Positions 22,427-27,024 of a stretch of DNA of 34,819 nucleotides are shown one piece after another. The stretch is taken from assembly GCA_024720975.1 (NCBI GenBank), contig JANJXX010000010.1, positions 1 to 34,819 on the forward strand, given 5' to 3'. Numbering within the stretch: position 1 is the first letter of the stretch; each line of letters starts with the position of its first letter. The stretch is from Thermoproteota archaeon (GTDB lineage: Archaea; Asgardarchaeota; Njordarchaeia; Njordarchaeales; Panguiarchaeaceae). Below the pieces are notes generated by a model. The model was given only the letters and a program-made list of their open reading frames with translations. It ran no database searches and was not told the DNA's origin. The translations under genes and the position numbers were made by a program.

Positions 22427-23176
22427 ATGATTATGCTCGCAATCTTATCAACAATACTGATAATTCTGGTGGTATATCTACTATGGAATTTTCCGTGGTT
22501 GACTGGATATTTTGAACCTATAATCTACACACGGAAGCTTTCAGGAAGCAAAGTAGCTGTTTTCTCTGATACGCATATAGAGAGAGGAAGCCTCCCAACA
22601 AGTCTGACAGAATTTATTTTGAAGGAGAAATTTGATCTCTTGGTAGCAGCTGGAGATTTAATTGAGTATGGACACAAGAGAATAAGAGCCAACGACTTAG
22701 AGCGCAAGTTAGCAGAGATATTCAGCCAAGTTATACAATGTCCTTCTATCAGGGAAATCTTCTATATAACAAGTACGAGCTCTCACGATCCAAAGATAGA
22801 TAAAATACTAGAGCTAATGATCAACGGAAAAAAGGTTACAGTCGTGCCAGGGGTTCTCATACTCGATGATTCTGTCAAATACTACATCACACATGGGGAT
22901 TACGCATCAAGAAATGGCAGCATTGCCCGCATACTTAATAGAATTTTTGATCTCTGGACAGAGAAAAGGCTGAGAAAAGCTCTGAAGATGTCTAGCGAAG
23001 CATGGCTAATATGTGGACACACTCACATATCACGAGTAAGTACCGAATTAAGAATTGTAAATACAGGAAGCTGGCACAGAAAGGCTCTAGCCAAGCCAGA
23101 GTTCACGCTAGCAGTTATCGATACTGGAAAAAATATAGTAGCCCTAGAGAAGTTAGCGATTACTCCAGCCCGTTAG
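22427..23176 (+). CDS. membrane-anchored calcineurin-like metallophosphoesterase (LpxH-like)
   Basis: N-terminal TM; SDTH, GDLI, SSHD (in place of GNHD), THGD, GHTH and NTGSW. Confidence 0.85.
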   Translation: MIMLAILSTILIILVVYLLWNFPWLTGYFEPIIYTRKLSGSKVAVFSDTHIERGSLPTSLTEFILKEKFDLLVAAGDLIEYGHKRIRANDLERKLAEIFSQVIQCPSIREIFYITSTSSHDPKIDKILELMINGKKVTVVPGVLILDDSVKYYITHGDYASRNGSIARILNRIFDLWTEKRLRKALKMSSEAWLICGHTHISRVSTELRIVNTGSWHRKALAKPEFTLAVIDTGKNIVALEKLAITPAR

Positions 23177-23327: not shown

Positions 23328-23843
23328 TTAAGCTAGTCCAAAAGCCTCGCTCCAAGTTTTGTAGTCAGAGGTATCTACTGATAAAGTCCATTCATTGAGC
23401 TTATCTTTGATTCTTGATACTAATTTCTTAATCTCATTTTTGTCCTTTAGATTAGCATCCATTGCGAATAGAACTACATTTTTATCCTCTTTAAAATTCC
23501 CCCATAACTCTATATGAAGTGGAATACCAGCAGTTTCGAGAGCTCTCTTTAGAATGTACAGATTATTCAAATGATTTCTATAATCATTTGGCAGAATAAG
23601 TGCTATTCCACTTTCCGGGTGCAGACCAGCTTTTCGATTCTGCAAGTGTCTCACAAGCTCGTTTAGGATAGCATCACTTGAATTTCTCTCAGTGTTATCT
23701 AGGACCGTAAGGTTCAAAAGCAGGGCTGCTAATATCTGTGCAAAGATTGCAGTTTCGTTGTCTTCAGGGTAGTAGTGAATTGGGAAACTTAAGTCGCTCG
23801 GAAATGCGATGATTAAAGATTTATTGCGATTAGTATCTTGCAT
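23328..23843 (-). CDS. hypothetical protein, possibly longin-like fold
   Basis: 171-aa ORF with a GGGGT RBS and an upstream TATA-rich tract. Its beta/alpha pattern ends VVLFAMD...EIKKLVSRIKDKLNEW. Confidence 0.6.
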   Translation of the reverse strand: MQDTNRNKSLIIAFPSDLSFPIHYYPEDNETAIFAQILAALLLNLTVLDNTERNSSDAILNELVRHLQNRKAGLHPESGIALILPNDYRNHLNNLYILKRALETAGIPLHIELWGNFKEDKNVVLFAMDANLKDKNEIKKLVSRIKDKLNEWTLSVDTSDYKTWSEAFGLA

Positions 23844-23999
23844 GTACGACCCCTAATTGGTGTTTTGTATCTATATATATTAAGGTTAAGTGGTGCATTT
23901 AAAATTTTATTTGTTAATATTTCCAGCATATAAAATATGCTTGAATAAAAATTCACTCTTTAGAGTTTAAAACAGTAAAAATAAGGATATGGCACACCA

Positions 24000-24050
24000 A
24001 TGATGAGCCAGCTGAGAACTGATCTTAATGATGATTGTTAAAAGCTCTGA
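24000..24050 (+). ncRNA. C/D-box 2'-O-methylation guide sRNA
   Basis: ATGATGA (24000-06) - 12 nt GCCAGCTGAGAA - CTGA (24019-22) - ATGATGA (24028-34) - 12 nt TTGTTAAAAGCT - CTGA (24047-50). Four perfect boxes with canonical 12-nt guides, intergenic. Confidence 0.92.
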
Positions 24051-24111
24051 CTTTAGTACTTTTATATCCTGTTTTGATTTACGAGTAATTGCTTTTCTTG
24101 GTGCTTTAATA

Positions 24112-24705
24112 ATGCGCCTGCTGGTAATTTCCGACACGCATGAAAATGTGAGAGTCCTTGATGCATTGCAGGATGTTATTGGTAAGCTTAAGCCTGAAGT
24201 TGTTATACACTGTGGAGATTTTATCTCACCAATAATCATTAGGAGATTGCTGAGGCTAGATGTAGATATTCAAGGGGTGTTTGGGAATAATGATGGAGAT
24301 GTAGATACAATATCTAGACTAGTAAAGGGTTCAAGAATACTCATAGAGAGTCAGCCCAAAGAGATTGAAATAAATGGTGAGAGAGCACTCGTTTTACATG
24401 GGTGGAAAAGCGTTGAACTGACACGAAGAATGGTGAAATCTCTGGCTCTAGGTGGTGATTATAGGTATATTTTCTACGGACACACGCATAACGTCGAACT
24501 AAGTATAATCAAGAATAGGAATTACCAAGTTCTTCAGGATGGATACAGTGAGGACACATCCTATAAGTTTAAAGTCGATGAATTTGACTCATTGGTACTT
24601 AATCCTGGAGAAGCATCAGGGATTCTAACTGGTATATCTACGTATGCATCGTTAGAGGTTACTAGGGATTATGTTCTAGTTGAAATAAAAAGATTAGAGG
24701 TTTGA
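24112..24705 (+). CDS. YfcE/MJ0936/Vps29-family metallophosphoesterase
   Basis: ISDTHEN, HCGDF, GNNDG, LHG, GHTH and NPGE. The true start is MRLLVISD at 24112; the longer ORF runs through the sRNA. Confidence 0.9.
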   Translation: MRLLVISDTHENVRVLDALQDVIGKLKPEVVIHCGDFISPIIIRRLLRLDVDIQGVFGNNDGDVDTISRLVKGSRILIESQPKEIEINGERALVLHGWKSVELTRRMVKSLALGGDYRYIFYGHTHNVELSIIKNRNYQVLQDGYSEDTSYKFKVDEFDSLVLNPGEASGILTGISTYASLEVTRDYVLVEIKRLEV

Positions 24706-24714
24706 TATTCTAGA

Positions 24715-25107
24715 TCAGAATTTTAGCTCAGTTTCTGAACTCCAAAGGCCGTGAATATTGCAGTATGAAAAAGCAATAAGCTTTCCAGGTTTTTCGGTTC
24801 TAAATGAAAACACAGCAATCGGCTCCGTATAAACCCCACTCGTGTTAGGTCCCTTTACGGATTCTCCATGGGCATTAAACTCAACAAAGCCTAGATCATA
24901 TGGAAAATTGGAGTCTTCGGGCCAGAATAATAGTCTGATCCATCTTATATGATGTTCAGTAGTATTTGGATGCGGAATTTCTTTACCAACGGATACGCGA
25001 ACCGTTATGAGTTTTTTTGCTTCGGCTTTCTCTAGGATCTCAATGACTGGAACGTGCTTTTCGGTTTTCCAATCAGCGGTTTTGAATATGTATGACAATT
25101 TTATCAC
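24715..25107 (-). CDS. sor: superoxide reductase (neelaredoxin, 1Fe-SOR)
   Basis: EKHVP, HPNTTEHHI and CNIHGLW iron ligands. Confidence 0.95.
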   Translation of the reverse strand: MIKLSYIFKTADWKTEKHVPVIEILEKAEAKKLITVRVSVGKEIPHPNTTEHHIRWIRLLFWPEDSNFPYDLGFVEFNAHGESVKGPNTSGVYTEPIAVFSFRTEKPGKLIAFSYCNIHGLWSSETELKF

Positions 25108-25932: not shown

Positions 25933-27024
25933 ATGGCAGCATCCTACGTGGAAAGATTACTATGGAAGTACTTTAAAGATAATGTGTTTGGCGGATTCAG
26001 TAGCTTTATAGACAGGAGTGCGCTTCCATGGACACTACTAATCTCATCAATGCTAGCATGTGAGTACTTATACAAAATAAGACCTGGATCAACAGTGCTC
26101 GTCGCCTTATCTCTAATGTTGATTGGAATTATTCTATGGAAACGTCCAATGAATTTCAGAGCGGCAATAATAAGCGCTATACTACTCAGCGCTCTATGGG
26201 CATATCCCGCAAAATTTGGATCAGGGTTTATTGATTTTCTAAATAACATAAGCATGCTTTATGGAACTCTATTCGCGTGGTATCTATTTAATGCCTCCAT
26301 GTTTATAATTCAGACAGCCAACTTTTTTGCATCTACAGCAGGAATAGTAATTCTATATGGTAGTGATAAAGAGAGGATTTTCCTATCACCACTGGAGCAG
26401 TTAATTTCTGCATCAGTGCTAGGATTGGCTGTCTGGAAACTCGAAACGAGACTTCTAGATCTAATAATAGTATCTGCCCCAATCCTGATAACATTATTAT
26501 TTGCACACGTTATCATGAGAGGTAAAGGAAGAATTTTAAAAAGTGCATATGGACTATTCACGTTTGTTGTTGTGCCATCAACAATAGGATTTGTGATGGG
26601 ACTAGGAAGGACCGTAAATGCAACTATCTGGTTTATAATAGCGGTATTCTCACTGCTATTTGCAATTCAAAACTACACAAGAACCCTAGTTAGAGAGAAG
26701 AGAGTTGGTTTAAAATTTGGCTTCCTAGCATTTCTGGGATTAATCCTGCTGATTCTTCATCTCATTATCACCCCAGAATATTCATTAGCTATATCAATAA
26801 GAGATGTATGGCTTCTATCGATATTAGCTGCAGCACTCGCTCCAATCGTATCTGCAATATACTTTTATGCAACAGGGAAGATTGAATACTATGTTAGAAG
26901 AAATATGTTTACATGGAAAACGATAGTACGAGAAATATCAACCGTGCTAGGGATGAAAGCTTTGGAAGGAATCAGAGGTATCATCTGGGGGGAAGTAATG
27001 AAGCTATTCGGAGGAAGGAAGTAG
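25933..27024 (+). CDS. polytopic membrane protein of unknown function
   Basis: 363 aa with about 10 hydrophobic segments. Confidence 0.7.
   Translation: MAASYVERLLWKYFKDNVFGGFSSFIDRSALPWTLLISSMLACEYLYKIRPGSTVLVALSLMLIGIILWKRPMNFRAAIISAILLSALWAYPAKFGSGFIDFLNNISMLYGTLFAWYLFNASMFIIQTANFFASTAGIVILYGSDKERIFLSPLEQLISASVLGLAVWKLETRLLDLIIVSAPILITLLFAHVIMRGKGRILKSAYGLFTFVVVPSTIGFVMGLGRTVNATIWFIIAVFSLLFAIQNYTRTLVREKRVGLKFGFLAFLGLILLILHLIITPEYSLAISIRDVWLLSILAAALAPIVSAIYFYATGKIEYYVRRNMFTWKTIVREISTVLGMKALEGIRGIIWGEVMKLFGGRK

Follow-up and report, generated by a model that had tools for sequence, protein, structure and literature searches.

A candidate box C/D guide RNA for the wobble uridine of tRNA-Lys(UUU) in an uncultured Njordarchaeales-labelled archaeon

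An archaeal contig of 34,819 nt, analysed over its whole length (the window), almost certainly carries a previously unannotated box C/D sRNA gene of 51 nt at 24000-24050 on the plus strand. The RNA has two guides, and the one next to box D very probably directs 2'-O-methylation of the wobble uridine, U34, of tRNA-Lys(UUU). The other guide is complementary to the D-arm of the same tRNA, and a combined reading, in which one sRNA guides methylation of U34 while its second guide directs methylation of C13 or holds the D-arm open, is likely. The sRNA is a fresh example of a well-known class. The guide that it carries is shared by several archaeal lineages. None of the papers compared describes a guide for U34 of tRNA-Lys(UUU), and as far as these papers show the archaea-wide family appears to be undescribed.

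The sRNA gene and its target tRNA

The element, as read in the region 23850-24200, follows the layout of an archaeal box C/D sRNA, in the order C, guide, D', spacer, C', guide, D (Table 1). The initial annotation had placed four consensus boxes and two 12-nt guides here, and the sequence agrees: the C/D boxes are present, the C'/D' boxes enclose a K-loop, and both guides are of the usual length of about 12 nt. A pattern for the full motif (RUGAUGA-N10-13-CUGA-N2-9-UGAUGA-N10-13-CUGA) was scanned against the genome, a 1.36-Mb metagenome-assembled genome (MAG) in 29 contigs with 40% G+C and 81% completeness. It matches nine loci, against none in the reversed genome and none in each of five shuffled genomes; thus, the motif at the sRNA locus is not due to chance. 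An internal CUGA at 24012-24015 was considered as the D' box and rejected, as it would leave a guide of only 5 nt.

Table 1. Features of the sRNA gene and of the gene that follows it (positions in the window)
Feature	Position	Strand	Remarks	Evidence
Putative promoter, A/T-rich TATA-like TTTAAAA	23966..23972	+	About 31 nt 5' of box C	Predicted from sequence
Box C, AUGAUGA	24000..24006	+		Sequence; canonical motif scan; alignment to box C of Rfam C/D models
D' guide, GCCAGCUGAGAA	24007..24018	+	12 nt; duplex with C11-G19 of tRNA-Lys(UUU); N+5 is C13	
Box D', CUGA	24019..24022	+		Sequence; motif scan
D'-C' spacer, UCUUA	24023..24027	+	5 nt; loop of the K-loop	Sequence
Box C', AUGAUGA	24028..24034	+	Contains the AUG wrongly taken as the start of a 225-aa ORF	Sequence; ORF list; Pfam
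D guide, UUGUUAAAAGCU	24035..24046	+	12 nt; duplex with G30-C39 of tRNA-Lys(UUU); N+5 is the wobble U34	
Box D, CUGA	24047..24050	+		Sequence; motif scan
Calcineurin-like metallophosphoesterase, corrected start	24112..24705	+	N-terminus MRLLVISDTHEN; not part of the sRNA	Metallophos_2

T-rich tracts lie 3' of box D. Upstream, an A/T-rich box like the putative promoter of Table 1 is also found at the sRNA loci of relatives, 20-34 nt 5' of box C. Among sequencing runs, the locus is present in hot-spring metagenome DNA runs only. No Rfam family, the sR families included, reaches its gathering threshold in the window. The best permissive match is RF01133 (sR3 of Pyrococcus; 26.9 bits, E 8.5e-05, threshold of 41 bits), in which only the boxes are aligned. 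This family and the other Pyrococcus sR families have the same box layout and length as the sRNA, but their guides are unrelated to those described here.

Which RNA do the two guides address? There is no tRNA inside the window. The genome has 41-46 tRNA genes, as called by ARAGORN and Infernal, together with one 16S and one 23S rRNA gene. Both guides were compared with 46 tRNAs and the 16S and 23S rRNAs (8,956 nt), and only runs of pairs that include position five, counted from the box, were accepted; this is the nucleotide modified under the N+5 rule of archaeal C/D RNPs (PMC6009581, PMC7994747). For each of the two guides the best match is tRNA-Lys(UUU), the product of a sole gene (C11:397903-397996) whose 20-nt intron lies on the 3' side of the anticodon stem. 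That both guides might serve one tRNA had been raised when the sRNA was first noticed, and the scan of the stable RNAs gives this answer; the proposed target sequences are present in tRNA-Lys(UUU), and neither guide has a longer match in 16S or 23S rRNA.

The target of the D guide comprises the 3' end of the 5' strand of the anticodon stem, the whole anticodon loop, and C39. The duplex of 10 bp consists of a G30-U wobble pair beside box D and nine Watson-Crick pairs, and its fifth pair is A:U34. Complementarity to the anticodon loop of a tRNA-Lys(UUU), with U34 at N+5, had been proposed in the initial annotation and holds for the genome's own gene. The D' guide forms nine Watson-Crick pairs with its D-arm target (CUCAGCUGG), with G:C13 at the fifth position. 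Two mismatches are adjacent to box D', and past G19 the A20 of the tRNA stands opposite a guide G and does not pair. The earlier assignment of this guide to a tRNA D-arm was therefore right as to the place, although the complementary stretch is 9 nt and not the 10 nt originally given. Both duplexes have at least about 9 bp and a Watson-Crick pair at N+5, and both are of normal length, because the other canonical sRNAs of the genome form duplexes of 9-11 bp with rRNA or tRNA.

The second lysine tRNA of the genome, tRNA-Lys(CUU) (C27:26068-26153), presents C34 to the guide's A at N+5, an A-C mismatch. Its D-loop also differs (CAGCCCGG) and has only C11-C16, six pairs, in common with the D' target; therefore, both guides discriminate in favour of the UUU isoacceptor. 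Antisense pairing with the anticodon loop, N+5 at position 34 and discrimination between isoacceptors are the marks of a wobble-34 guide, and the D guide shows all three.

How often would such matches arise by chance? When the guides are shuffled, a Watson-Crick run of at least 9 over N+5 is found in the stable RNAs for 2.5% of D and 6.2% of D' guides. Both shuffled guides find such a run in one tRNA in only 3 of 200,000 trials (about 1.5 per 100,000), and random genomic 12-mers do so in 5 of 200,000. The D guide is U/G-rich, and a shuffle that permits G-U pairs lets 31% of shuffled D guides reach 10 contiguous pairs; the Watson-Crick-only shuffle was adopted in its place.

A number of other observations were made on the tRNA and rRNA genes of this genome. 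A canonical sRNA at C11:291377-291425 (+) has a D guide, AGAUCUUGAGUG, that is complementary to the anticodon loop of tRNA-Leu(CAA) over 10 Watson-Crick pairs and has C34 at N+5, and a D' guide that matches tRNA-Leu(UAA) over 10 bp. Thus, wobble-directed tRNA guides recur in the genome. At C27:25879-26153, tRNA-Ser(GCU), a C/D sRNA (25983-26031) whose two guides match 16S rRNA, and tRNA-Lys(CUU) follow one another with gaps of 8-36 nt; the same sRNA lies between the same two tRNAs in a congener (locus L015), which suggests that the cluster is a conserved polycistronic unit. The tRNA-Lys(CUU) gene has, within the D-arm and following roughly position 21/22, a non-canonical intron of about 13 nt and is miscalled by ARAGORN as an intron-bearing tRNA-Leu(taa); the mature sequence can be read from the intron-less genes of congeners. 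On C11, the 23S (+) and 16S (-) genes are convergent rather than operon-like (390761-396110), with tRNA-Ala(UGC) between them, and tRNA-Lys(UUU) is located 1.8 kb beyond the 16S gene. This layout is either an unusual arrangement or an artefact of MAG assembly.

Occurrence of the guide in archaea and variation of its D-arm partner

The related genomes were searched with the pattern UGAUGA-N3-UUAAAAG-N2-CUGA. As the seven central nucleotides of the match to the anticodon loop are set by this pattern, only the flanks are independent evidence. It is found in 4 of 41 related genomes, namely the source genome (G000), two of the four other genomes of the genus (G002 and G004), and one genome from a different family of the same order (G005). 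Across the phylum, and with canonical boxes, 4 of 400 genomes have it; these are 4 of the 14 in its own order, against 0 of 386 elsewhere. A relaxed pattern found no copy of the sRNA in the congeners G001 and G003 (MAGs 78-81% complete). The matching congeners have been deposited as 'Candidatus Njordarchaeota archaeon' (GB_136) and 'uncultured Nitrososphaerota archaeon', and the first label is also that of the genome of the other family (B7_G17); the use of both names within one genus reflects the unsettled placement of the lineage.

Boxes and guide are conserved in these relatives, and the flanks continue the pairing. The free 5' ends of the relatives' guides (GGG, UGG, and AGG) pair on with C40 and U41 to give 10-12 bp, and the duplexes of the two congeners (GGG and UGG) reach 12 and 11 bp. 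The D guide of the source genome is the weakest of its family, with nine Watson-Crick pairs, a terminal G-U, and two mismatched nucleotides at its 5' end. The anticodon arm of tRNA-Lys(UUU) is the same in the congeners (UCAGG-CUUUUAA-CCUGA). Their tRNA-Lys genes are without an intron, and the intron is thus apparently dispensable for the guide.

Is the guide restricted to this lineage, as the initial annotation implied? A wider scan, in which each of 185,579 prokaryotic species was represented by a single genome, gave 35 exact matches in archaea and 29 in bacteria, 64 in all. The archaeal ones come from Ignisphaera, Desulfurococcaceae, Thermosphaera, and other Desulfurococcales, from Acidianus copahuensis, and from Caldarchaeales ('Aigarchaeota'), Wolframiiraptor, Nitrososphaeria, Methanomethylicia, Woesearchaeota, and Njordarchaeota-labelled genomes; the original scope was thus too narrow, as the guide occurs widely among archaea. 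The two sets of matches differ at positions that the pattern leaves free. A G opposite C39 is present in 34/35 archaeal matches and 4/29 bacterial ones, GG opposite C39-C40 in 29/35 and 4/29, and C opposite G31 in 32/35 and 7/29, while a second box pair at the distance expected of an sRNA is present in 30/35 archaeal matches and in 0/29 of the bacterial ones. The contrast is plain, although p-values computed from it are overstated, since related genomes are not independent. To judge from these sequences, the free positions fit a tRNA-Lys guide in the archaeal matches, unlike in the bacterial ones.

The tRNA-Lys(UUU) sequence was retrieved from 28 matching genomes, and 23 sRNA/tRNA pairs were compared. 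In all 23, the Lys guide makes 10-12 contiguous pairs and has U34 at N+5. Two search patterns failed to find tRNA-Lys(UUU) in G043, G049 (Acidianus), G059, and G064, and only G047 yielded one. In this last genome, a Caldarchaeales MAG, the gene (locus L115, position ~1501, minus strand) seemingly has an intron on each side of the anticodon loop, making two; the duplex between this tRNA and the sRNA guide of the same genome measures 12 bp before splicing and 11 bp after it. The Lys guide does not always occupy the same place in the sRNA. It is at the D position in the Njordarchaeota-labelled genus (G000, G002, and G004), in Methanomethylicia, Nitrososphaeria, and Caldarchaeales, and in one Woesearchaeota genome; it is at the D' position in Desulfurococcales, in the Acidianus versions, and in G005.

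The second guide is more variable. In the congener G004, the D-arm guide (GCCAAGCUGAGCU) pairs with A9-U17 and has C13 at N+5. In Methanomethylicia, the D' guide (GCUGGCUGAGCG) makes ten Watson-Crick pairs with G10-G18 of its own tRNA-Lys (D-loop CAGCCAGG), again with C13 at N+5, and two compensatory changes distinguish these pairings from those of the source genome: A:U17 has become G:C17, and C:G18 has become U:A17a. Nitrososphaeria, Wolframiiraptor, and one Caldarchaeales genome have D' boxes of the xxGA type and D' guides that pair with U12/C13-U20a over 8-11 bp, where N+5 is C16. By contrast, the second guides of Desulfurococcales and Ignisphaera match tRNA-Lys only weakly or with many G-U pairs, and the D' guide of the congener G002 is unlike the others; it has no D-arm match and matches weakly the 3' acceptor end and trailer. 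A D-arm or D-loop guide coupled to the U34 guide thus recurs in at least four deep lineages, with variation in the exact nucleotide addressed. The difference in G002 and the shift of N+5 to C16 elsewhere suggest that the exact site of any D' methylation is under no strong constraint.

This variability bears on whether the D' guide methylates anything at all. It has been considered that only the D guide is a methylation guide, and that the D' guide serves as a chaperone or tether that opens the D-arm, or is drifting towards an orphan state. About 80% of the Pyrobaculum sRNAs that target tRNAs have a single guide with a target (PMC6009581), and the two mismatches beside box D', the unrelated D' guide of G002 and the movement of N+5 between C13 and C16 among lineages all agree with such a role. 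Furthermore, C13, which is located in the D-stem, was not found as a documented 2'-O-methylation site (Cm13) in the literature compared. Nevertheless, a D' guide without a methylation target is unlikely. Nine Watson-Crick pairs over N+5, in the very tRNA that the D guide addresses, are very unlikely to arise by chance, and the pairing with the D-arm persists in Methanomethylicia, by way of compensatory changes, and in Nitrososphaeria, where the guides differ in sequence. There is also a precedent in Sulfolobus, where U34 and the D-loop nucleotide G18 are both methylated (PMC7668247). The reading in which both guides are active is preferred here, but for C13 itself as a methylated nucleotide the chances are about even.

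Other targets, reading frames, and neighbouring genes

Could the real targets be sites in rRNA or mRNA, the matches to tRNA-Lys being incidental? In favour of this, the D' guide can form eight Watson-Crick pairs and one G-U pair near the 5' end of 23S rRNA, and a genome-wide scan found matches of 11-12 bp for both guides in ORFs and intergenic DNA, one of them 3 nt upstream of a tRNA. The rRNA match is, however, weaker than that to the tRNA, and the D guide finds nothing above 8 bp in rRNA, with mismatches. The near-perfect genomic matches, about 1-2 per guide, occur at the number expected by chance for a 12-mer in 2.7 Mb of two-strand sequence, the many genomic matches of 10-12 bp are likewise no more frequent than chance predicts, and the changes seen in the guides of relatives preserve the pairing with tRNA-Lys. 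Such alternative targets are therefore very improbable. The match next to the tRNA gene (C19:142249-142331) is a full complement of the D guide at C19:142335-142346 (-), with 11 Watson-Crick pairs and one G-U; it was rejected as a chance hit, one match of this kind being expected.

It is harder still to believe that there is no RNA gene and that the boxes are coincidences within the coding N-terminus of the 225-aa ORF (24028-24705, +), which spans the 3' half of the sRNA and takes its ATG from box C', or within a 90-aa ORF on the minus strand (23967-24239), both of which are open through the region, for the first 28 residues of the former are an extension that homology does not support, the full box pattern is absent from the control genomes, and the same RNA is found in relatives beside unrelated genes. 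Position 1 of the Metallophos_2 profile falls on residue 29 of the 225-aa ORF, the Met at 24112 (Pfam, E 1.1e-25), and thus the ORF is over-extended, as had been suspected from the outset. We take the N-terminus that begins at this Met to be a typical start for the metallophosphoesterase family. With the corrected start, the sRNA lies upstream of the gene, with 61 nt between the end of the one and the start of the other, and a TATA-like box in this interval (TTTTATAT, 24061-24068) may be the metallophosphoesterase gene's own promoter. In practical terms, an over-extended ORF call is corrected and an unannotated RNA gene is added.

A second gene for a calcineurin-like metallophosphoesterase (22427-23176, +) lies on the other side of the sRNA region. 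The neighbourhood also contains a 171-aa ORF without a Pfam match (23328-23843, -) and a gene for a desulfoferrodoxin/superoxide-reductase-like protein (24715-25107, -). When four neighbouring proteins were compared with six homologous sRNA loci, tblastn gave no match. The genes around the sRNA therefore differ between genomes, and this fits the reported variability in the genomic context of archaeal C/D sRNA genes (PMC7994747).

Proposed mechanism, known guides, and significance

The proteins of a C/D RNP are encoded in the genome: fibrillarin (C11:235371-236045; PF01269, 318.7 bits), Nop5 (C11:229495-230199; PF01798, 211.8 bits), and two members of the L7Ae family (PF01248, 104.6 and 64.2 bits). 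Expression of the sRNA and formation of Um34 and Cm13 are what we infer by analogy with characterised archaeal C/D RNPs. The sRNA would be transcribed from its own promoter, and L7Ae would bind to the K-turn formed by boxes C and D and to the K-loop formed by C' and D'. A Nop5 dimer would bridge the L7Ae sites, and two copies of fibrillarin would sit over the two guide-target duplexes. Pairing of the D guide with nucleotides 30-39 should bring the 2'-OH of U34 into the methyltransferase site and give Um34 or a 2'-O-methylated xm5/s2 derivative. Pairing of the D' guide with C11-G19 may give Cm13, or may merely keep the D-arm open.

At what stage would the tRNA be modified? The pairing requires an unmodified A37 (and U34) and an unfolded D-stem and anticodon stem; therefore, the RNP most likely acts on the nascent or precursor tRNA. 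The two sites are 21 nt apart, and the duplexes might form at once or in sequence. The latter would resemble the case of pre-tRNA-Trp, for which sequential methylation is reported, as cited in one of the sources compared (PMC7994747).

The closest known counterpart is found in Sulfolobus, where an sRNA targets both U34 and G18 of tRNA-Gln and those modifications have been observed (work of 2004, as cited in Wolff et al. 2020, PMC7668247); Um34/s2Um34 has been observed in tRNA-Gln of S. acidocaldarius (PMC7668247). Like the sRNA described here, it is a trans-acting dual guide for the wobble uridine and the D region of one tRNA. It differs in acting on tRNA-Gln(UUG) and on G18 in the D-loop, rather than on tRNA-Lys(UUU) and C13 in the D-stem, and the Lys guide is predicted from sequence.

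In Pyrobaculum, sR27 is directed to U34 of tRNA-Gln and sR46 to U34 of tRNA-Thr (Lui et al. 2018, PMC6009581); sR46 is among the few sRNAs of this genus with both guides on one tRNA (PMC6009581). They too are anticodon-loop guides with N+5 at position 34 and a single tRNA target each. However, these families are specific to Pyrobaculum, in contrast to a Lys guide found in several lineages of archaea, and the wobble targets listed for Pyrobaculum are tRNA-Trp, Gln, Val, and Thr, with tRNA-Lys not among them (PMC6009581).

Elsewhere, in Pyrococcus and Haloferax, tRNA-Trp, tRNA-Met, and tRNA-Leu are known or predicted targets of RNA-guided methylation at the wobble nucleotide (PMC7994747, PMC2584109, PMC4033218). 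There as well, Nm34 is made by an RNP of L7Ae, Nop5, and fibrillarin, and in the case of tRNA-Trp two sites in one tRNA are modified sequentially. In contrast to the Lys guide, the Pyrococcus and Haloferax guides modify C34 or, in tRNA-Leu, U34, and the tRNA-Trp guide is intronic and not a free-standing gene. U34 of tRNA-Lys(UUU) is also expected to bear xm5s2U-type base modifications, and any cross-talk with those pathways would set the Lys case apart.

It can tentatively be proposed, although it is at present rather doubtful, that these sRNAs form an old, undescribed pan-archaeal family dedicated to tRNA-Lys(UUU), which includes several Thermoproteota lineages, Woesearchaeota MAGs, and, in the phylum of the source genome, only the thermophilic order to which that genome belongs, and which would hold the precursor by its D-arm and anticodon loop at the same time. 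If this is true, 2'-O-methylation of U34 would be an early RNA-guided step that precedes t6A37 and xm5s2U34 and imposes an order on the maturation of tRNA-Lys, the tRNA that depends most on modification. Moreover, the restricted spread of the guide in its phylum (4/14 in the order, 0/386 elsewhere), against its wide spread in Thermoproteota, could bear on the disputed placement of genomes labelled Njordarchaeales.

U34 of tRNA-Lys(UUU) is among the most modification-dependent nucleotides in translation, and its stabilisation in thermophilic archaea is partly mapped. The conserved guide predicts Um34 or a 2'-O-methylated xm5/s2 derivative, and perhaps Cm13 or Cm16, in many uncultured lineages as well as in cultured relatives of Acidianus and Ignisphaera. 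With this prediction, tRNA-Lys would join the short list of tRNAs with RNA-guided wobble methylation, and would provide the second case, after Sulfolobus tRNA-Gln, in which guides for the D region and the wobble position are coupled.
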